IMG/VR virus record: IMGVR_UViG_3300031578_000004
Coordinates: 32,001-96,000 of that record
Direction: 5' to 3' (one strand)
From: a virus
Length of the DNA: 64,000 nucleotides
Shown here: piece after piece, positions 17,773 to 60,680 of the stretch
How positions within the stretch are numbered: the first letter of the stretch is position 1
How the letters are laid out: the number at the start of each line of letters is the position of its first letter
Position numbers and translations under genes: made by a program
The notes under the pieces: generated by a model
Databases searched by the model: none
What the model was told of the DNA's origin: nothing
The model's input: only the letters and a program-made list of their open reading frames with translations

Positions 17773-19011
17773 TCATGAGATGAATTGTTGACAATCTATA
17801 ATCCATGATTTTCTAGCCTGTATTCTTTCCATTTTACTAAACTTAGGAATAGGTTTTAAATTAATCTTATTTCCTTGAATATCCATTAAAATTGCATAAC
17901 CTGTAGACATTCTCCCCTTGATAAAATATTCATTACCCAAATACCTCACCTTATCAAACTTTCTAAAACCTTTAATTTTACCTGTGTTGATTCGTTGCTC
18001 ACTTCTAATGCCTTTCGTTTGCTGACAATCACCATCGGAAACACACTTTTTTAACAATATTATATTGTTTTTAAATTGAATTTCATTCCCTTGACTTGCA
18101 ATAACTACAGCATCCATGTAATGCTCTTTAGGCAAGTTCAATAATTGTCTATGTTCTTTGGTTATAAATCCAAAGGTTTCTTCCGCATTGGGTAATAACT
18201 TCAATAATTGAGTTCTTATGCTATTCATTTGAGTAGCATGTTTTAATTGCCCTTTGATTTTTCCACCTTTTAAAGTAATATTTCCTTCATGTAAATTATC
18301 ATGACAGGTTTTACATAAAGTTATCAAATTACTTTCTTCATCTGAACCTCCATTTCTTCTAAAGGTTATATGATGTACTTCAAGTTTACTATTCTTATTT
18401 TTATCTTTACAATGTTGACAGGTGTAATTATCTCTATTTAATACATATGCCTTAGTATTAGCAAATCCATAATTAATGCCTTTTTGATATAACCACTTAT
18501 TCCATAATACACTAGGATTCTTTAAAGCATGTGTATCAAATGTAGCAGTTTCTAATATTACTTTTGTAATAGGCAATATTGATTTTACAAAATTAATTTC
18601 CTTTAAATGGCTGTTTATTTTACTATTCATTGTGGGAGAAAATCTGTCCTTTTTAATTGAATTTTTTCTGTTCAACCATCTTGCTTTTCTGTATCTGGTT
18701 TTCCTATTACGTCTATTTCTGCGATATTTAGAACGTCTTGTCATCTTGTCTGAAATATCATTTCTAATTTCAACTTGCGACATATAAACAACATTACCAT
18801 TATCTTTAACTGCCGAACTACCAATTTTACTACTTCCAGTATCAATGCCTAATATAATATTTTGAGTGTAGTTTGTAGTTTGATAAAGAAGTTTAATAGT
18901 AAAGGGTATTCTTCTAATACATTTAGCTTTGCATTGTTTGAGCAGTAATCTTGCAATCGCTGATGAACAAGGCATCAATGGTGTGCCATCATAATTAATT
19001 ACATAAACCAT
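17773..19011 (-). CDS. iscB: RNA-guided endonuclease IscB
   Basis: PLMP motif, RuvC-I GIDTGS, Arg-rich helix RRNRRNRK, RuvC-II E, HNH (CQHC..EVHH..NLITLCKTCH), RuvC-III HYMDA. Start MVYVIN after AGGAG. Confidence 0.93.
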   Translation of the reverse strand: MVYVINYDGTPLMPCSSAIARLLLKQCKAKCIRRIPFTIKLLYQTTNYTQNIILGIDTGSSKIGSSAVKDNGNVVYMSQVEIRNDISDKMTRRSKYRRNRRNRKTRYRKARWLNRKNSIKKDRFSPTMNSKINSHLKEINFVKSILPITKVILETATFDTHALKNPSVLWNKWLYQKGINYGFANTKAYVLNRDNYTCQHCKDKNKNSKLEVHHITFRRNGGSDEESNLITLCKTCHDNLHEGNITLKGGKIKGQLKHATQMNSIRTQLLKLLPNAEETFGFITKEHRQLLNLPKEHYMDAVVIASQGNEIQFKNNIILLKKCVSDGDCQQTKGIRSEQRINTGKIKGFRKFDKVRYLGNEYFIKGRMSTGYAILMDIQGNKINLKPIPKFSKMERIQARKSWIIDCQQFIS

Positions 19012-19029
19012 ATAATCAACTCCTGATAA

Positions 19030-19291
19030 ATTCTCTACATTACTGTAGGATGTGCGTATCTTATTACTATTACCATAATAAGAATTCGTCTTCATCTCGA
19101 CAAAGATAATTAGGCTTTTGCACTTATATCACCGAACCTTACCTTAGTTCTACTTAAATATAAGTGATAGAGCAACGGTCTGATGCGTCAACCATAGGTA
19201 TCATGACCTAACTATCGTAGTATCCGTTTCTGGGTACTGAATCTGGTGAACTTAGCATTAGATGCCTACGACTTTAGTCGTGGGTAGTTCA
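19030..19291 (-). ncRNA. omegaRNA (HEARO-type) scaffold
   Basis: Begins TGAACTACCCACGACTAAAGTCGTAGGC..ACCAGA..CTACG..TGTCGAG directly upstream of iscB; 3' limit approximate. Confidence 0.8.
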
Positions 19292-19445
19292 AATCCGTAC
19301 AATGTATGTTCGTTTGCTATAATAATAACACTATTATGTTAATTAATATAGTAAAACCATATTGCATAATTCAACATAATTCGACATATTTTTCATATAC
19401 AAATGTTAGTTATATTCACAATATACTTAATTTATCAATATTATA

Positions 19446-36432: not shown

Positions 36433-36930
36433 CTAATTTAAAGGCTTTTCAAATTCTAAATAATAATCATTCATATCTTTTACTATCAATGGGTTTTTAT
36501 ATACTTCTGAAAATGTCTGATTTAAAAAATCATATGAATCAATTTCACCGATAAAATCATTATAATAGTCTATGCATTCTTCTCCGCTGGAAAAGTGTAT
36601 ATTAACTATATTATTCAAATTTGGTTTTTTACCTTCATATTCATAATTAAATCTTATAATTGTATTATCTGCATATTTGATTAAAAAAGTTTCATCTTCA
36701 CTCATCTCATTTGTTAGCCAATTTTCAATGCTATATTTCAAACATTGTTTTAAATCACTTTTATAAATTTGTGTTTTATCTTGCTTTGATTGTCTTATAT
36801 ATTGTTTACACCAGCTTTGCTTGTCTAGTTTACTATTCATGTATTTTGGTTCTATTTGGTTTGTGTAATCTTCATGGGTTGTTGTTAGGTTTGTAAGGTT
36901 TAAAAACTCTTGATATAACATTGTTAACAA
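36433..36930 (-). CDS. Hypothetical protein
   Basis: Promoter TTGACT-N17-TAGTAT at 36963-36991; AGGAG RBS. Confidence 0.6.
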   Translation of the reverse strand: MLTMLYQEFLNLTNLTTTHEDYTNQIEPKYMNSKLDKQSWCKQYIRQSKQDKTQIYKSDLKQCLKYSIENWLTNEMSEDETFLIKYADNTIIRFNYEYEGKKPNLNNIVNIHFSSGEECIDYYNDFIGEIDSYDFLNQTFSEVYKNPLIVKDMNDYYLEFEKPLN

Positions 36931-37631
36931 CTCCTTATTAATTTTTATAGTTATTATCTAATATACTACTACTACTATATGTAAGAGTCAATAGCATTAT
37001 ACTATTTATTTTTATAGTCTTTATTCCTTATTATATGAAGTGTTTTATTAGTTGGTGTATTAATTGTGTAGTTGATATATAAGATAGTTTATAATCAATT
37101 GTAGTAGCTTGCAGAGGTATTGTAAAAGGTGATTGTATTGGTATAGATTGTATTGTCAACTGCTTTATATTATATAGTTAACAATAGTATTGAGTTTGAT
37201 TAGTTTGATTGTCAACTTTGATATTGTAGTTAGTTAACAATATGTATAATTAATATATGAACATTATATGCCTTTAATGGTTTAATGTTCGTGTTTATTA
37301 TGTGATATGTTTGATTGATATTAATTGAGTATTGAATAATAAAACACGAACATTATTATTATATTAGTGTTTAATGTTCGGATATTATAATATGAATTGT
37401 ATCGCTACAATTATAGTATATATTGTTTAATAGTGTATTAGTACATTGGTTAATTAGTGTAGTAACTAACCTTAATACTTCAGTGAGTTGTTCGCTGTTA
37501 TTACTGCCGAATTTTAGGCATATTTATGCATTATATTGTAAGTCTATACAATTACATTGGCATCCTGCAAAGCTCCAATAAACAACATCAATATACTCTT
37601 ATTATTCCCTATTTTTATTAACATAATACAT

Positions 37632-37665
37632 AACATATCTTATAATAATCATTATAGGATATGTT
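37632..37665. other. dif-like palindrome, candidate tyrosine-recombinase site
   Basis: aacatatcttataa-taatca-ttataggatatgtt; arms match 13/14, 6-bp spacer. Confidence 0.45.
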
Positions 37666-37771
37666 TTTAATATATAATAAATGACTGTAAAGCCTTATAT
37701 ATCAACGTTTACAAGGCTTTTACTGATATACAATCAACAAATCAGCTTATGTAGTGGGGCATAGTTTACAT

Positions 37772-37786
37772 TGATAATCATTATCA
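37772..37786. promoter_or_regulatory. Fur-box-like 7-1-7 palindrome
   Basis: TGATAAT-C-ATTATCA, perfect match to the 7-1-7 consensus. Confidence 0.45.
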
Positions 37787-38512
37787 TTTAGCAGGATGGA
37801 GCATGAGTACATCAACAAACACACCCACTTTAAAATACGAAATCGACTCTCCAAAATTACATAAAAATACAAAACAAAAAACCCAAAAACCCTTCCTCAC
37901 ACTCGACTAAATTATCGTACACCCTTTTCCACTCCTATTCCATAAGGGGGCGTACATTAACAACCAACACACTAAAAACACCCTATACACCACCATACCC
38001 TTACAAAACACTAACATATTACGACTGTAATCCATAAACTCAATATCCAATAATCCACTAAACCTATAAATACCAATACTTCAACTATATTTCTAATACT
38101 ATATCTAAACCATAACCGAACACCATTTCACATACCCTCTCTCCAAATACCACATTAATCCTAAACAAAACTTCCCACCCTTCCCATATAAATCTACCAC
38201 TAAAATATAAACTATCTTAAAACTCATTACAATACCCAACTCCAAACCACCTCACTCCCAAATTCAAACCCCACTTCACGACAATAAAAAAGTAGGGCAT
38301 TAAACCTTACTAAAAATTACACTATAATCCTTATCTTTTCCTTCAAACCATTCATGTTGTCTAACAAATCTTCTGGAAATATATAAATAGCACGATGTTT
38401 AATTGTTTCACAAGTTTCTATCTTTGCAATCGCATAAAAGTAAGTTATAAATAGAGGAATTTGTGAAAAAATATAGAAGTAATATAAGAAATTTGCAAAA
38501 GGGGGAAACAAA

Positions 38513-38968
38513 ATGAAAAAATCAATTTTTAAACGTTGGTGGTTTTGGGTAATTATTGTTGTAGTTTTAATAGGTGCGATTAGTTCGCAAGGGGGAAATG
38601 ATGTAACTCCAACACAAAGCACAGCTGCACCAGCTCCGGTAAAAGAGGTAATGCCAGAAGTTGTTGTTACTGCAGCAGACCTTTCTGCAGCTTTTGAAGC
38701 TAATGAAGTAAAAGCAAATAAGGATTATAAAGATAAATTAGCTGAAATTACAGGAACAGTTGACAGTGTCGGTGAAATGCTAGGTCAGACATTTGTAGTG
38801 TTATCATCTGGTAAAGATTTTTCAATTGTGAATGTTCAATGTTTTTTTGATGATAAAGCAGAAATAGATAAAATTGCTGAACTTAATAAAGGAGATACAG
38901 TTACTATTATGGGAAATATTGATGGAATGTCGATGAACGTAGGAGTAAATGGTTGCATTCTTAAATAA
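38513..38968 (+). CDS. Membrane-anchored OB-fold (tRNA_anti-like) protein
   Basis: KRWWFWVII anchor; A.L...F..NEV.A...YK.K...ITGTV; terminator near 38981-39014. Confidence 0.75.
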   Translation: MKKSIFKRWWFWVIIVVVLIGAISSQGGNDVTPTQSTAAPAPVKEVMPEVVVTAADLSAAFEANEVKANKDYKDKLAEITGTVDSVGEMLGQTFVVLSSGKDFSIVNVQCFFDDKAEIDKIAELNKGDTVTIMGNIDGMSMNVGVNGCILK

Positions 38969-39128
38969 ATATTAAAATATAAAAACTGTCTACAACTTTA
39001 AGTAGTCAGTTTTTTCTTTGGAATATATTCAATTAAATCTGTAAGACAAGCTATTTAACAATCATTATAGTAAAAAAGCCAGAGCTTTCGCCCTGACTCC
39101 TTAATATATCTATTGTAAGTTTTTTCAA

Positions 39129-39998
39129 TTACCTTAATAATTGAAGTACACCTTGTGGAGCTTGGTTTGCTTGAGCTAACATAGCTGTTGCTGCTTGATT
39201 AAGGATGTTATTCTTGCTGAACTCCATCATTTCCTTTGCCATGTCTACGTCACGGATTCTAGATTCAGAAGCCGATAAGTTTTCTGATGATGTATCTAGA
39301 TTCTTAATAGTATGTTCAAGTCTATTTTGCAATGCACCTAATTGTGATCTTTGTGTAGAAACTTGACTGATAGCTTCGTCGATAGCACCCAATTGATTGT
39401 CAAAAGATGTAAGGGTGCCGGATGCTCCAAAAGTTTCAACATCTATAGTATCCATTGTTAAAGACGAAGCAGGGGTGGCACCAATTGTACCTAATGCATC
39501 AGAGCCCATATCTGCCACGTTTATTTTTAACGTTTGACCCGCGTTAGCGCCAATTTGTAAATCAATACTAACAGCTGAATAAGCTCCATTCAACAAAGTT
39601 TTTCCATTGAATTCTGTTCTGTCTGAAATTCCTGTAATTTCATCTGATAAAGCAGTTATCTCAGTTTGAATTGCTGCTAAATCTTCATCTGCGTTTGTTC
39701 CGTTACCAGCTTGAACAACTAGCTCACGCATACGTTGCAAAATTGCATGTGATTCGTTTAATGCACCTTCTGCCGTTTGTATCAATGAAATACCATCTTG
39801 TGAGTTTCTTGAAGCTTGATTTAACCCTCTGATTTGACCTCTCATTTTTTCTGAGATAGAAAGACCAGCAGCGTCATCTCCTGCTCTATTGATTCTTGAA
39901 CCTGATGATAACTTCTCCATTGACTTGGCATTGGCATTTGCATTGATACCTAATTGTCTGCTTGTGTTCATTGCCATTATGTTCGTGTTTATTCTCAT
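39129..39998 (-). CDS. hag: Flagellin
   Basis: MRINTN..EKLSSG.RINRAGDDAAGL.ISEKMR; RSQLGALQNRLEH; SRIRDVDMAKEM..QANQ.PQGVLQLL. Confidence 0.97.
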   Translation of the reverse strand: MRINTNIMAMNTSRQLGINANANAKSMEKLSSGSRINRAGDDAAGLSISEKMRGQIRGLNQASRNSQDGISLIQTAEGALNESHAILQRMRELVVQAGNGTNADEDLAAIQTEITALSDEITGISDRTEFNGKTLLNGAYSAVSIDLQIGANAGQTLKINVADMGSDALGTIGATPASSLTMDTIDVETFGASGTLTSFDNQLGAIDEAISQVSTQRSQLGALQNRLEHTIKNLDTSSENLSASESRIRDVDMAKEMMEFSKNNILNQAATAMLAQANQAPQGVLQLLR

Positions 39999-40027
39999 AA
40001 AATTTCCTCCTTAGACGCGTTAATTTA

Positions 40028-40039
40028 CACATCCATGTG
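40028..40039 (-). promoter_or_regulatory. CsrA-binding hairpin in flagellin leader
   Basis: CAC-ATGGAT-GTG (GGA in loop) upstream of the AAGGAGG RBS. Confidence 0.7.
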
Positions 40040-40066
40040 ATTTATTTACAAACTGATATTATCAGT

Positions 40067-40285
40067 CTATATCGATATTAAAGGTTTGACTAATTCTGTT
40101 CTCAAAATTTGTATACTCTTTGGAGCATCTATTGCTACTCTAAACAAGTCACCACTTGTTTTTAGAAAGAATATAGAAATTACTCCATCTGAGGTTTGAA
40201 ACTTGATTGACTCACCAACTTTTCTACCTAAAACCAACCCTCCTATGTTGTTTACTTTTGATGATTTCTTTATTATATTGCTCAT
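40067..40285 (-). CDS. csrA: CsrA-like translational regulator
   Basis: LVLGRKVGESI....I.I......RVAIDAPKSIQILRTEL. Confidence 0.85.
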   Translation of the reverse strand: MSNIIKKSSKVNNIGGLVLGRKVGESIKFQTSDGVISIFFLKTSGDLFRVAIDAPKSIQILRTELVKPLISI

Positions 40286-40365
40286 TTGTTTTCCTCCTTG
40301 ATTGATTCGGTAGTTTATTTAGTAGTTCCATCTACAAAATTTGTTGTTTTGTTGTCCTTAGTTAT

Positions 40366-40393
40366 TATATCGGAATATTTTAATAATACATTA
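40366..40393 (-). promoter_or_regulatory. sigmaD/FliA-type promoter
   Basis: TAAT-N16-CCGATATA upstream of csrA-hag. Confidence 0.65.
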
Positions 40394-40797
40394 GTGATTT
40401 TTTTAGATTTTTTTAATATAAGTGGAATGTTCGTTTTTACTTATTTATCTCAACCTCAACCGTAACCTTCTTGCCCTTTTCCCCCGACCTTATAATCCCC
40501 ACGATATAGCAGTGTTACTGTCTCCACGTTCCTCCGTTTTTAATACCATTTTATCACATCTACAATTTAAAAACCGTTCTCTGTAGCAAAACTAATTTGT
40601 CAGCGTACAAACTGCGGGGAATTAAACCCGTCTTTGATTAAAGCAACCCCCATTATGTCAATTATATAGCATCAACTGTACAATGTAAGCATTGATAAAA
40701 ACGACACAGAATTGATTGTAGATTAATTCAATTTTAAATTGTCACCTTTCAATATCATTTAAACATGACCTATATTTTAATATTTTTTTACTCTGCA

Positions 40798-41400
40798 TTA
40801 TTTGTTAAATTCCTGCCTGATTTCTTGTATAGTTGAAACTAATGCTAACATTTCCTCATAGTTCTCATGTATATAATTAGATATCTCCCTATCTAACTCT
40901 GCAAAAAATTCATATAGCTTAGCATCATACTTGTATTTATCAAATAAAATTAGTGCGCCATCACTTCCCATTAAATACTTTTTAGTAATGAATCGTTTTG
41001 CATATCCTAATGCTAAAACTGCGTATCCATAAGTGATACTTCCTGTTCCTCTATACTTCAGCCTTGCTTTAGACCATTTCTCAAGTCTTGAAAATAAATA
41101 CTTATATTGTCTTTTATCTAACATATATGTTGATAATCTGCAAATATATCCAAATGCTATGGCTGAAAGCTCATAAGAATAATTTACTTTATCTTGGTGT
41201 TTTATATCTATTTGAAGAAGTCTTTTATCATCCATAAAATCATTCAGAATTTTGTCTATAACATACAAAGACATATCAACAGCAATTGAATTAATTTTAC
41301 TACTGTCTTTAACTGTAATCCTAATATATATTGTTTGTAATACCTTCCAAGTTATTAATATTGTCAGTGCATATGTAACATATTTAATAAACATTTTCAT
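40798..41400 (-). CDS. Membrane-anchored hypothetical protein
   Basis: N-terminal TM helix, GGAG RBS. Confidence 0.6.
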   Translation of the reverse strand: MKMFIKYVTYALTILITWKVLQTIYIRITVKDSSKINSIAVDMSLYVIDKILNDFMDDKRLLQIDIKHQDKVNYSYELSAIAFGYICRLSTYMLDKRQYKYLFSRLEKWSKARLKYRGTGSITYGYAVLALGYAKRFITKKYLMGSDGALILFDKYKYDAKLYEFFAELDREISNYIHENYEEMLALVSTIQEIRQEFNK

Positions 41401-41580
41401 TTCTCCCTTTACACATTTTTTGAGGCTTCTCTAATTTATGCCATCATCTCTTCTTACTATAATTCGCAATTTTCAAGTTTCTCCTTTTAATTTTATTTAT
41501 TAAAAGTTATATAATAAATGAGCCTCTACGGTCATTGTAGAAGCTCTAGAAAGTTATCCCGTTAAAGGTAGACAGAAATA

Positions 41581-41976
41581 TTAATACAGCCAATTTCCAT
41601 TACTATCTACTCTACCTTTTAATTTTGGTAGTATACCTAGCTTTTCCAAAATAATTCCCGTTAGGCTTCTTCCATTTTGATAAAAATATCCGTTTTGTTT
41701 ATCTCCTTCATCCATTATGTACCCAAGTGTTTTTGCATTTCTTAATGTGTTTTCTTTCAAATCTAATGCTGTTACTTTCTCTTGTGTTAAGCTTAATGGC
41801 GAATAAAAAACATTTGTATTAGTGTCGACATAAACAATGGCATTGTCTGGAATTGTTCCCATAGAACCAATTGTAAGTCCCAAACCCAACAAAGCCACGA
41901 TTGCAATTATTAGATTTAGCGTATATTTTTTTATCTTTTCCAATAAAAACACCCTTTCATATAATACAATGAACAT
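41581..41976 (-). CDS. Membrane-anchored hypothetical protein
   Basis: N-terminal TM helix. Confidence 0.55.
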   Translation of the reverse strand: MFIVLYERVFLLEKIKKYTLNLIIAIVALLGLGLTIGSMGTIPDNAIVYVDTNTNVFYSPLSLTQEKVTALDLKENTLRNAKTLGYIMDEGDKQNGYFYQNGRSLTGIILEKLGILPKLKGRVDSNGNWLY

Positions 41977-42021
41977 AAGTAATACAAATTCGAGAGTAAT
42001 ATACCAAATTTTCTTCTATGT

Positions 42022-42273
42022 TTATTTATTCAAATCATCTAAGCTCTTTTTAGTTGGTGGGCGACATACTTTACATGCTTCTAATCCATCATATAAAGCC
42101 CTAGAGAGATTTATATCTATCGCTTTACCTTTTACATATCTACAATTCATACGGTGATATTTTGCCCCTGCTGATGTTTTATAGACTGATATATCATTCT
42201 TTGGGGCTTGATAACATGATGTGAGTGATAAACACAATATAACTAATAATAACATTAGCAATTTTCTTTTCAT
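42022..42273 (-). CDS. Small lipoprotein with metal-binding motif
   Basis: Lipobox LTSC; VY.T..G.KYH..C...ACKVC.P. Confidence 0.7.
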   Translation of the reverse strand: MKRKLLMLLLVILCLSLTSCYQAPKNDISVYKTSAGAKYHRMNCRYVKGKAIDINLSRALYDGLEACKVCRPPTKKSLDDLNK

Positions 42274-42563
42274 ATAATTTCATCCTTTGGTATACATATA
42301 GCTATTAGAACTTTCAGAATAATTCCCCCTATTATATATGTAAATACAATAATAGAATATTTAGTTAAAAGTGTATGGCTAATTTCGTAGCCTAGTATGA
42401 TTAAGTATATTTGTGATACAAACGGAAAACATAAACTTGCTAATCCCCATAAAACCCCGTTTATAGTATAAATAATATAAGCAGTCCACAAATGAATCCC
42501 TCCACCAACTAATCCTAATAAAATATTAACAATAAAACTTACATAGAATATGCTTTTTCTCAT
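42270..42563 (-). CDS. Membrane protein
   Basis: Three hydrophobic segments, GGAGG RBS. Confidence 0.6.
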   Translation of the reverse strand: MRKSIFYVSFIVNILLGLVGGGIHLWTAYIIYTINGVLWGLASLCFPFVSQIYLIILGYEISHTLLTKYSIIVFTYIIGGIILKVLIAICIPKDEII

Positions 42564-59814: not shown

Positions 59815-60680
59815 GCCGAAGGGCATTATAAATAAATAGAATATGTGGAAGGGCATCGAAAGAGTAAGTCCAGCCACAATAGAATGAATAGGGTATAGAA
59901 TCCCAACAAAGAAGATTTAACTATCCAGTGTGAGAAATCACACACCTGCCTATAACACAAATAACAGTTTACAAGTTTATATTTTGTGTGAAGAAAAACT
60001 TGTCTGAAACATATATAGTTACCTGTCGTATATGTGAATGGTTTACTGCTTGATAAAAGCAACAGGCAAAACTATTATTTATTTAATAGTCGGTACAATA
60101 TCACCGAATAGTCCTCATGATAGAGGTTTGTCAGAAGCCTACCAAATATCTGCATGGTAAAGCATGTAAAAACTTAGAGTGCGAGGTTTAGAGGAAAAGC
60201 CTTCCAAGATATTGTTTGAGGCAATGCACTTAAAAAACCCTGCTTTTATTACTTACTTGCTTTAGAGCAAGAGATTTTATCACATATTCTACATGTAGAA
60301 CACGAGAGGATATTGGACGTTCTGACATCTTCTCAACCCCTTAATTTTTACTATTTTGAGGATAGAACAGGCAGCTATCACACCATGAAAATGGTCTTAT
60401 AAGAGATGCAGGAGCTATATCAATAAGGATATAGAGTTTATAGATTAGAAATACATTTATAAACTGATTGTCGCCCTGCCAAATAGTTTAATAATCCTAC
60501 AGGGCATGTAATTTTGCTTGTGGAATAACATACATTTTAATGGTGTATCACAAGTTGGTAATATACTTTGTCAGAAGTACAAACTGACCATGTCCGAATT
60601 TGCCTTATATATAATTTTTTATTATACTCCCTCTAAAATACAGGTGCTTACTTGCTAATGGGTGGGCATCTGTATTGATT
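59815..60680 (+). ncRNA. Candidate structured noncoding RNA region
   Basis: ~870 nt with no plausible plus-strand ORF, raised GC, many hairpins. Confidence 0.4.

Follow-up and report, generated by a model that had tools for sequence, protein, structure and literature searches.

The Hag-FliW-CsrA partner switch of Bacillus subtilis is encoded by the chromosomal fliW-csrA-hag genes (Yakhnin 2007; Mukherjee 2011, 2016; Oshiro 2019, 2020, as cited in PMC7652899 and bioRxiv 10.1101/2020.07.02.184341). What would be, judged from its sequence, a truncated form of this switch, lacking the two defining features fliW and the Asn55 tail of CsrA, was found in a stretch of viral DNA of 64,000 nucleotides (hereafter the window), which comprises bases 32001–96000 of the linear 130,358-bp IMG/VR record IMGVR_UViG_3300031578_000004 (CheckV completeness 78 %). 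This csrA-flagellin cassette resembles the B. subtilis system in that csrA lies immediately upstream of a Hag-type flagellin gene, a SigD-type promoter is present, the RNA-binding residues of CsrA are conserved, and the flagellin leader has a GGA hairpin and a GGA-containing Shine-Dalgarno (SD) sequence. It differs in being carried by a phage, in having no fliW and in encoding a CsrA without the Asn55 tail and with Gln in place of Asp41, and FliW antagonism is predicted to be lost. In addition, the SigD promoter of the cassette lies before csrA, so that csrA and flagellin form one unit, and csrA has a CsrA-type leader of its own. We consider it about an even chance (a probability of roughly 0.5) that the cassette is a lysogenic-conversion moron, which acts on flagellin translation and alters the composition or the amount of the filament.

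Control of flagellin by a phage has been described for the flagellin-remodelling prophages (FR-phi) of Enterobacter, in which the phage-encoded TldR silences host fliC while the phage fliCP is expressed (bioRxiv 10.1101/2023.11.30.569447; Nat Microbiol 2026, PMC13418256). As in these prophages, a complete phage-borne flagellin is found together with a FliA/sigma-28-type promoter (here before csrA) and a dedicated repressor able to act on flagellin expression, as a moron in a phage of temperate type. In contrast to the RNA-guided transcriptional TldR, the repressor is predicted to be a translational CsrA, the hosts are Firmicutes, and Pfam gave no TnpB-type domain (PF07282) in the record or in the neighbouring open reading frames (ORFs). 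The cassette sequence gives no evident sign of selectivity for the host over the phage flagellin. By analogy, the cassette would be a post-transcriptional counterpart of the TldR-FliCP prophages.

Chromosomal csrA-tldR-fliC loci have been reported from Oscillibacter and Flavonifractor, where CsrA binds the motif CAAGGAUG within a stem-loop of the 5′ untranslated region (UTR) of fliC, as detected by RNA immunoprecipitation sequencing (RIP-seq), the UTR being that of another fliC (PMC13418256). For such clostridial loci the preprint reports that no bacteriophage association was detected for the csrA-associated TldRs (bioRxiv 10.1101/2023.11.30.569447). What the cassette has in common with them is the genetic linkage of an accessory csrA and an accessory flagellin; they lie on chromosomes and also contain tldR and hin, whereas the cassette has no tldR and lies on a phage. 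In the survey of Sobrero and Valverde (2020), csrA was present in 30 of 2517 phage genomes, mostly of phages of Pseudomonas and other Proteobacteria, and the main text of that paper does not connect csrA with flagellin or mention a phage of Bacillus or Clostridium (PMC7366521). Like the surveyed alleles, the cassette encodes a CsrA-family protein, and the window proteins match the PHROGs families phrog_9500, phrog_8397 (‘CsrA-like regulator’) and phrog_16088 (flagellin-like); three IMG/VR csrA loci of the surveyed kind, unlike the cassette, have no flagellin alongside. A phage csrA-flagellin unit was not found described in the literature, of which subscription journals and supplements may hold more. 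The phrases ‘phage-encoded CsrA’ and ‘prophage-encoded CsrA’ do not occur in the matching papers listed, and ‘phage-encoded flagellin’ was traced to the two TldR papers alone (bioRxiv 10.1101/2023.11.30.569447, PMC13418256). Phage control of flagellin is known; the reading of the phage CsrA as blind to FliW and the recurrence of the cassette are new.

The CsrA of the window consists of a Lys-rich N-terminal extension of 16 amino acids (aa), the CsrA core and just 10 residues past Arg44. The RNA-binding residues L2, L4, R6, K7, R44 and E46 are present (as L17, L19, R21, K22, R62 and E64 in the alignment to 2jpp, 1t3o, 5dmb and 5z38), and R6, R44 and E46 are invariant among 16 short CsrAs. In the PDB-chain alignments the protein ends at the equivalent of B. 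subtilis residue 54, without Asn55 and without the C-terminal extension, and D41 is replaced by Q. Asn55 is necessary for FliW binding and reported to be invariant where CsrA and FliW co-occur, and D41 makes a salt bridge needed for the inhibition of CsrA by FliW (bioRxiv 10.1101/2020.07.02.184341). The chromosomal comparison set consisted of 59 csrA ORFs from 78 genome loci with the closest chromosomal flagellins. In 53 of these csrA ORFs beside flagellin, the gene directly upstream is fliW; 47 of the upstream ORFs were confirmed with Pfam, the remainder being covered by a local FliW hidden Markov model (HMM). In the HMM alignment the N55 column holds N in all 53 FliW-linked chromosomal CsrAs versus none of the 12 phage-borne ones, and R44 is kept in 12/12 of the latter. 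Past R44, between 25 and 38 residues follow in the 50 parsable FliW-linked CsrAs (one mis-parsed row aside), compared with 10 in the window CsrA. The protein, called divergent in the preliminary description, is more specifically a form that has lost Asn55 and the C-terminal extension, which we infer to be FliW-blind.

The N-terminal extension of CsrA appears to be real, since AAGGAGG lies seven bases before the ATG and a homologue, P0002 (72 aa, 83 % identical), keeps both termini. An alternative TTG start that would drop the extension was rejected: the SD before it stands immediately against the codon, AAGGAGG is ideally spaced from the upstream ATG, and P0002 retains the extension. P0002 was the single relative in a word-based homologue search, and an exhaustive profile search gave 120 relatives at E ≤ 1e-3, mostly short (55–70 aa), some of them tandem two-domain proteins. 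The near relatives P0004, P0010 and P0012 (114–170 aa) have two tandem CsrA domains and look like single-chain ‘dimers’. A homodimer model scored 0.46 versus 0.00 for the best control, at a mark reached by 20/30 solved pairs and 1/23 single chains, with at least 97 % of contacts agreeing across runs and a predicted local distance difference test (pLDDT) score of at least 66; as CsrA dimers are already solved, this is a likeness at best. The positions K7, S11, E45, L47 and I25 were predictive in a functional survey of CsrAs (PMC13443453), and the phage CsrA has K7, S11 and L47 but T45 (the direction of each position's prediction aside).

The genes, control elements and terminator together span positions 40393 to 39072 on the minus strand (Table 1). 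The promoter, GGA leader, csrA, GGA hairpin, 289-aa flagellin and terminator named in the preliminary description were all located on that strand at the positions it gave, and the cassette is a self-contained unit from SigD promoter to terminator.

Table 1 Features of the cassette and of the adjoining gene, in window positions
Feature	Position	Strand	Basis
SigD/FliA-type promoter TAAT-N15-TCCGATAT	40367..40393; −35 TAAT 40393..40390, 15-nt spacer, −10 TCCGATAT 40374..40367	−	sequence, script scans
csrA 5′ leader, ~75 nt, three GGA elements	40286..40360	−	sequence, folding
GGA in csrA leader	40357..40355	−	sequence
Hairpin GUAG-AUGGAA-CUAC, GGA in 6-nt loop	40335..40322	−	in minimum free energy (MFE) fold of csrA leader
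csrA SD AAGGAGG	40299..40293	−	sequence
csrA, 72 aa	40067..40285	−	Pfam PF02599, 44.6 bits vs cut-off 27, residues 17–67; phrog_9500 1.2e-07
10-bp hairpin over csrA stop codon, AUAGACUGAU..AUCAGUUUGU	40048..40070	−	MFE fold of spacer (75 nt folded), z −4.1
Flagellin leader element CACAUGGAUGUG, candidate CsrA site	40039..40028, GGA 40034..40032	−	sequence
Flagellin SD AAGGAGG, GGA-containing, candidate CsrA site	40012..40006	−	sequence
Flagellin, complete, 289 aa, minimal D0-D1 (Hag) type	39129..39998	−	Flagellin_N (PF00669) 4.4e-49, Flagellin_C (PF00700) 8.3e-33
Intrinsic terminator: G+C-rich stem, GAAA loop, T-run	~39072..39102	−	fold z −3.4
Moron next to cassette, convergent with flagellin; membrane-anchored oligonucleotide/oligosaccharide-binding (OB) fold	38513..38968	+	Pfam tRNA_anti-like 4.3e-32; phrog_8545 ‘superinfection exclusion Sie-like’ 1.1e-17

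The promoter was scored against TAAA-N15-GCCGATAT, which we take to be the SigD-type consensus, and agrees with it at 3 of 4 letters in the −35 and 7 of 8 in the −10 element. The two strands of the 130-kb record together have 13 sites of this quality, versus 3.8 ± 2.0 in 100 Markov simulations, so that the motif by itself is not unique and its weight comes from its position and its conservation in sister cassettes. An equivalent promoter (TAAA-N14-16-xxCGATAT) was found by script 39–56 nt upstream of csrA in six other viral cassettes. Overall, the script placed a SigD-type promoter 39–90 nt in front of csrA in 7 of 12 cassettes, to which that of Bacillus phage EZ-2018a is added by eye, against a background of 0.042 sites per 260 nt. 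A candidate internal SigD promoter for the flagellin gene was rejected; directly before the gene there is just a poor match, ATCGATAT, with no −35 element. The terminator hairpin was not among the calls of a consensus terminator scanner.

Between csrA and flagellin lies a spacer of 68 nt, and the hairpin over the csrA stop codon may be an attenuator, a processing site or a stabiliser. In the ligand-selection (SELEX) consensus for CsrA, RUACARGGAUGU, the letters ACA, GGA and GU are invariant, and the selected ligands typically have a short stem and a six-base loop (PMC7652899). The element CACAUGGAUGUG of the flagellin leader retains ACA, GGA and GU and also has a short stem and a six-base loop. 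In the MFE fold of the flagellin leader, by contrast, GGAUGUGU is paired to ACGCGUCU in a competing 9-bp helix, which hides the first GGA rather than presenting it in a loop. A two-site layout of the flagellin leader, with one site over the SD, is matched in sequence by CACAUGGAUGUG and AAGGAGG, both putative sites. In all eight promoter-bearing cassettes examined, csrA is preceded by a GGA in a hairpin loop or by an SD held in a hairpin loop, and the flagellin cistron downstream either has a GGA hairpin, the SD ACACGGAGGU or both, or overlaps csrA; the csrA-flagellin spacing is very short or overlapping in four of the eight. Because CsrA-type sites occur on both cistrons in these eight cassettes, autoregulation and co-regulation are suggested, and the description of the unit as self-regulating is reasonable on this evidence. 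Among the 10 sequencing runs listed as holding the sequence of the window, none is an RNA dataset.

To place the cassette among other phages, IMG/VR was scanned with profiles of viral flagellins. The scan gave 41 loci with the record of the window excluded, 35 of which were assessable, with 500 nt or more before the flagellin gene. Ten of these 35 have csrA directly upstream of flagellin (≤225 nt), and the G+C content of the ten loci is 34–57 %. The csrA-flagellin cassette is a recurrent phage module. The neighbours of the flagellin loci are phage genes (endolysin, holin, integrases, terminase-portal). No fliW was found within 3 kb in any of the 35 with the local FliW HMM, nor in the 130-kb record, in line with its earlier reported absence from the window. 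Among 50,697 GenBank phage records, 12 match flagellin, mostly small fragments. One is long, that of Bacillus phage EZ-2018a (118 kb, cultured, unannotated), and carries a csrA-flagellin unit with TAAA-N15-GACGATAT, the leader hairpin UGUCAGGAUGACA, a short csrA, flagellin and no fliW. A nucleotide search of the cassette gave weak flagellin matches in only two GenBank phage records, and hag-type matches in 15 plasmid records. With the window CsrA, tblastn gave nothing at E 0.01 among the 50,697 phage records, the query being too divergent, since EZ-2018a has csrA. An IMG/VR scan with the window CsrA alone gave no locus, and one with orphan short CsrAs gave three viral csrA loci, none beside flagellin.

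Near-identical short CsrAs (53–56 aa, 73–75 % identical) with no adjacent fliW are encoded at L033 5567–5737, L058 5611–5772 and L079 9155–9322, on contigs of Firmicutes unrelated to one another, namely a Clostridia metagenome-assembled genome (MAG), Vallitalea and Paenibacillus, just upstream of extra flagellin genes. They resemble a mobile accessory pair of csrA and flagellin that occurs outside recognised phages. In a CsrA tree of 50 columns, which is poorly resolved and leaves the window CsrA unplaced, these three chromosomal orphans form a starred clade (97/93) with the phage CsrAs of L003, L007 and EZ-2018a. A single clade of all 11 FliW-less CsrAs was not rejected by the approximately unbiased (AU) test (p 0.264), which does not amount to a demonstration of one clade.

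The flagellin aligns end to end (residues 1–289) with residues 1–304 of B. subtilis Hag (6gow, 5wjt, 5maw; E ~1e-101), and in the C-terminal D0 region the two proteins are almost identical. Both ends are complete, with positions 1–137 of 139 of Flagellin_N and 1–86 of 86 of Flagellin_C covered. The nearest chromosomal flagellins, from uncultured Bacillota and Syntrophomonadaceae MAGs, are 60–76 % identical, 76 % being the maximum; in these host-like genomes the flagellin leaders have GGA hairpins and the SD CAAGGAGGAA. In a quick tree of flagellins of 230–330 aa, the viral sequences stand dispersed among the chromosomal ones, with 6 changes needed for their 7 rows, and it is therefore probable that phages acquired flagellin from host-like lineages on more than one occasion. 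Neither a single phage origin nor a nameable donor was recovered in this tree. A conserved element centred on GGGGCGGCCGACC, an unrecognised motif, was observed in a longer hairpin ~60–120 nt upstream of flagellin genes in the uncultured Bacillota loci L015, L016, L024 and L041.

The record has the genes of a phage. Outside the window it encodes a 1845-aa tape measure, portal, tail fibres, virion proteins, a terminase with homing-endonuclease genes inserted, endolysin, DnaE-type polymerase, primase, exonucleases, NrdDG and a large serine recombinase, and Pfam assigns NAD ligase, tyrosine recombinases, MazEF, YopX, S-adenosylmethionine (SAM) synthetase, Dam methylases and ClpP to further genes inside the window. 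The cassette lies more than 30 kb from both record ends with phage genes, hallmarks and integrases among them, on either side, which bears out the earlier statement that the unit is phage-borne. The DnaE is 44.5 % identical to that of 132–134-kb C. difficile phages, the nearest named relatives, and the carrier is probably a large, temperate soil siphophage of low-GC anaerobic Firmicutes. The G+C content of the phage DNA is ~28 %. At third codon positions (GC3) it is 0.26 for csrA and for flagellin, slightly over the phage range of 0.12–0.22, and the overall G+C of the loci with the nearest chromosomal flagellins is 0.29–0.50. No fliW (PF02623), fliS, sigma-70 region 2 or TnpB-type domain was detected in the 130-kb record, which at 78 % completeness leaves their absence from the entire phage unproven.

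Continuity of the cassette with its flanks was followed in public contigs. Of the sampled words, at least 93 % occur in three soil-metagenome runs of one year and 30 % in a fourth run, from another study; the first three may have the source sample among them and do not count as independent. In X2 and X3, contigs lead from the left flank into the flagellin 3′ end (38249–39411; 36830–39219). Others run from the flagellin 5′ end across csrA into the right flank (39954–42551; 39954–41610), and in X1 a 7.2-kb contig runs from 39690 to past 44000. A contig of the fourth run matches 39867–40417, i.e. the flagellin 5′ end, csrA and promoter, at ~98 % (10 differing letters and one gap in 550). The similarity stops at 40417, 24 nt upstream of the −35 element, which suggests that the upstream edge of the cassette is at about this position. 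Parts of the window are uncovered in X1 and X4, which is not interpretable. Contigs of three runs also join 38343 to 40878, skipping 2534 bases (the Sie-like gene and the whole cassette), with an uninterpretable 21 letters on the shorter side; a variant without the cassette is possible but unsupported.

If the cassette acts in lysogenic conversion, the host SigD/FliA polymerase would transcribe a bicistronic csrA-flagellin mRNA solely during the late-flagellar programme. The phage CsrA dimer would recognise GGA hairpins and GGA-containing SDs, repress its own translation and so set its own level, and would also repress flagellin mRNAs having GGA leaders. GGA operators are found on the leaders of the nearest chromosomal flagellins, so that targets exist in host-like genomes. 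Without Asn55 and the C-terminal extension, the phage CsrA could presumably not be switched off by host FliW, and repression would no longer be tied to the Hag-FliW-CsrA secretion checkpoint. The phage flagellin would be exported and polymerised by the host machinery. As a net effect, translation of host flagellin would be damped while phage flagellin is supplied, and the filament of the lysogen would change in composition or amount. A more far-reaching version, which we hold only tentatively and think rather doubtful, is that cassettes of FliW-blind CsrA and flagellin are a widespread means of post-transcriptional filament takeover by Firmicutes phages. The resident flagellin mRNA would be silenced and the phage flagellin would partly escape, for example by a GGA operator hidden in an alternative helix. 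The lysogen would then swim on a phage-specified filament evading flagellotropic competitors, in a protein-only convergent analogue of TldR-FliCP.

Several points weigh against lysogenic conversion through flagellin translation. The phage flagellin leader itself has near-consensus candidate CsrA sites, so that repression by a FliW-blind CsrA should extend to the phage flagellin; selective escape of this flagellin is speculation from the alternative GGA-hiding fold alone. The hairpin in the csrA leader is weak (4 bp), and that leader folds no better than shuffles (z −0.16). The branch of the window CsrA is very long (2.14 changes per column) and unplaced, and the protein has a 16-aa N-terminal extension and a 3-residue loop insertion which may affect its function. 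In 25 of the 35 assessable phage flagellin loci there is no csrA, which makes csrA dispensable for whatever flagellin does. The temperate lifestyle of the carrier is inferred from integrases alone. The public contigs break in the conserved flagellin ends, and the depths of the left and right flanks differ (X2, 80 vs 33; X3, 17.8 vs 7.0; X1, ~0–6 vs 15); we read the breaks and the uneven depths as related phage populations which share parts of the region.

The breaks at the conserved flagellin ends of the Logan contigs and the unequal flank depths would also be expected of a chimeric assembly join through conserved flagellin, and csrA-hag adjacency is ancestral in Firmicute chromosomes, from which a hitch-hiking host csrA-hag piece without adaptive role could recently have been captured. 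Such explanations are very improbable. Each flank is phage DNA, and one genome plan requires the two of them; in three runs contigs connect either flank with the cassette, and the run from the other study has the flagellin 5′ end, csrA and promoter at ~98 %. Moreover, the GC3 of both genes is near that of the phage, both ORFs are intact, the FliW-binding tail is lost in 12/12 phage-borne CsrAs, the promoter is conserved in sister cassettes, and the 83 %-identical P0002 retains the full length. A mis-assembled chromosomal fragment, the objection that the preliminary description itself had raised, is unlikely, and the breaks in the flagellin ends leave a chimeric join a small probability.

Alternatively, the cassette could shut off motility or exclude other phages. 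The FliW-blind CsrA would repress all flagellin mRNAs, that of its neighbour included, the phage flagellin would soak up FliW (and FliS) and thereby free host CsrA, and the lysogen, poorly flagellated, would resist flagellotropic phages or save resources. The near-consensus sites on the phage flagellin leader, the loss of the FliW determinants of the phage CsrA and the adjoining Sie-like exclusion gene are consistent with this, as is the C-terminal D0 region nearly identical to that of Hag, which makes chaperone and FliW binding plausible. A complete flagellin, conserved end to end and provided with a strong SD, would however be costly as a mere sponge, flagellin seems to be the primary cargo, given the 25 of 35 phage loci without csrA, and negative autoregulation of CsrA would cap the accumulation of the repressor. 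We regard a shut-off module as unlikely, if still to be reckoned with. Quite unlikely, in our estimate, is that CsrA only doses the phage flagellin by a private negative feedback, which would avoid overload or upset of the host FliW-CsrA stoichiometry and have a negligible effect on the host. The bicistronic arrangement, in which each cistron has CsrA-type sites in 8/8 cassettes examined, would suit such dosing, the very short or overlapping spacing in 4/8 suggests tight coupling, and the B. subtilis system is near 1:1:1 stoichiometry and sensitive to perturbation (PMC6529632). Cross-talk would nevertheless be hard to avoid, CsrA being diffusible and host-like flagellin leaders sharing the operator type, and the published accessory CsrA of csrA-tldR loci binds the UTR of another fliC (PMC13418256).

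The Sie-like gene, convergent with flagellin, places the cassette in a moron/exclusion island. Upstream of the cassette there is a non-coding spacer of ~380 nt (40417–40797, minus strand) with G-rich stretches atypical of the genome, a sigma-70-like promoter CTTACA-17-TATAAT (40689..40661) and a possible 23-aa ORF behind GGAGG. Rfam found nothing in the cassette or in this spacer, and a search for flanking direct or inverted repeats gave only A+T-rich matches of 14–24 nt, none of them convincing. Elsewhere, the terminase large-subunit gene is apparently split by a homing/HNH endonuclease gene (L013 774–3765 = G000 96274–99265). An IscB-type nuclease, a 440-aa RRXRR and HNH protein (Pfam 6.1e-53 and 5e-11), is encoded in the phage replication region (17773–19292, minus strand), and directly upstream of its gene lies a full-length HEARO RNA (Rfam RF02033, 101.8 bits), a guide-like RNA. 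The ‘skipping-rope’ RNA motif RF02924 was found at 60350–60487 (plus strand) between phage genes (56.5 bits vs a gathering score of 36.7).

Flagella are a major phage receptor, a major antigen and among the costliest structures of the cell. To our knowledge, phage control of flagellin has so far been demonstrated just for the RNA-guided TldR of enterobacterial prophages. If the present reading is true, the cassette would be a second, mechanistically different solution, in which phages target the flagellin homeostasis checkpoint itself by a CsrA stripped of its FliW handle. The csrA-flagellin arrangement occurs in about 3 of 10 phage flagellin loci, in phages of 34–57 % G+C. It would also be a natural source of CsrA variants insensitive to FliW, with which the partner switch could be dissected, and EZ-2018a, cultured and unannotated, offers a direct experimental entry point.

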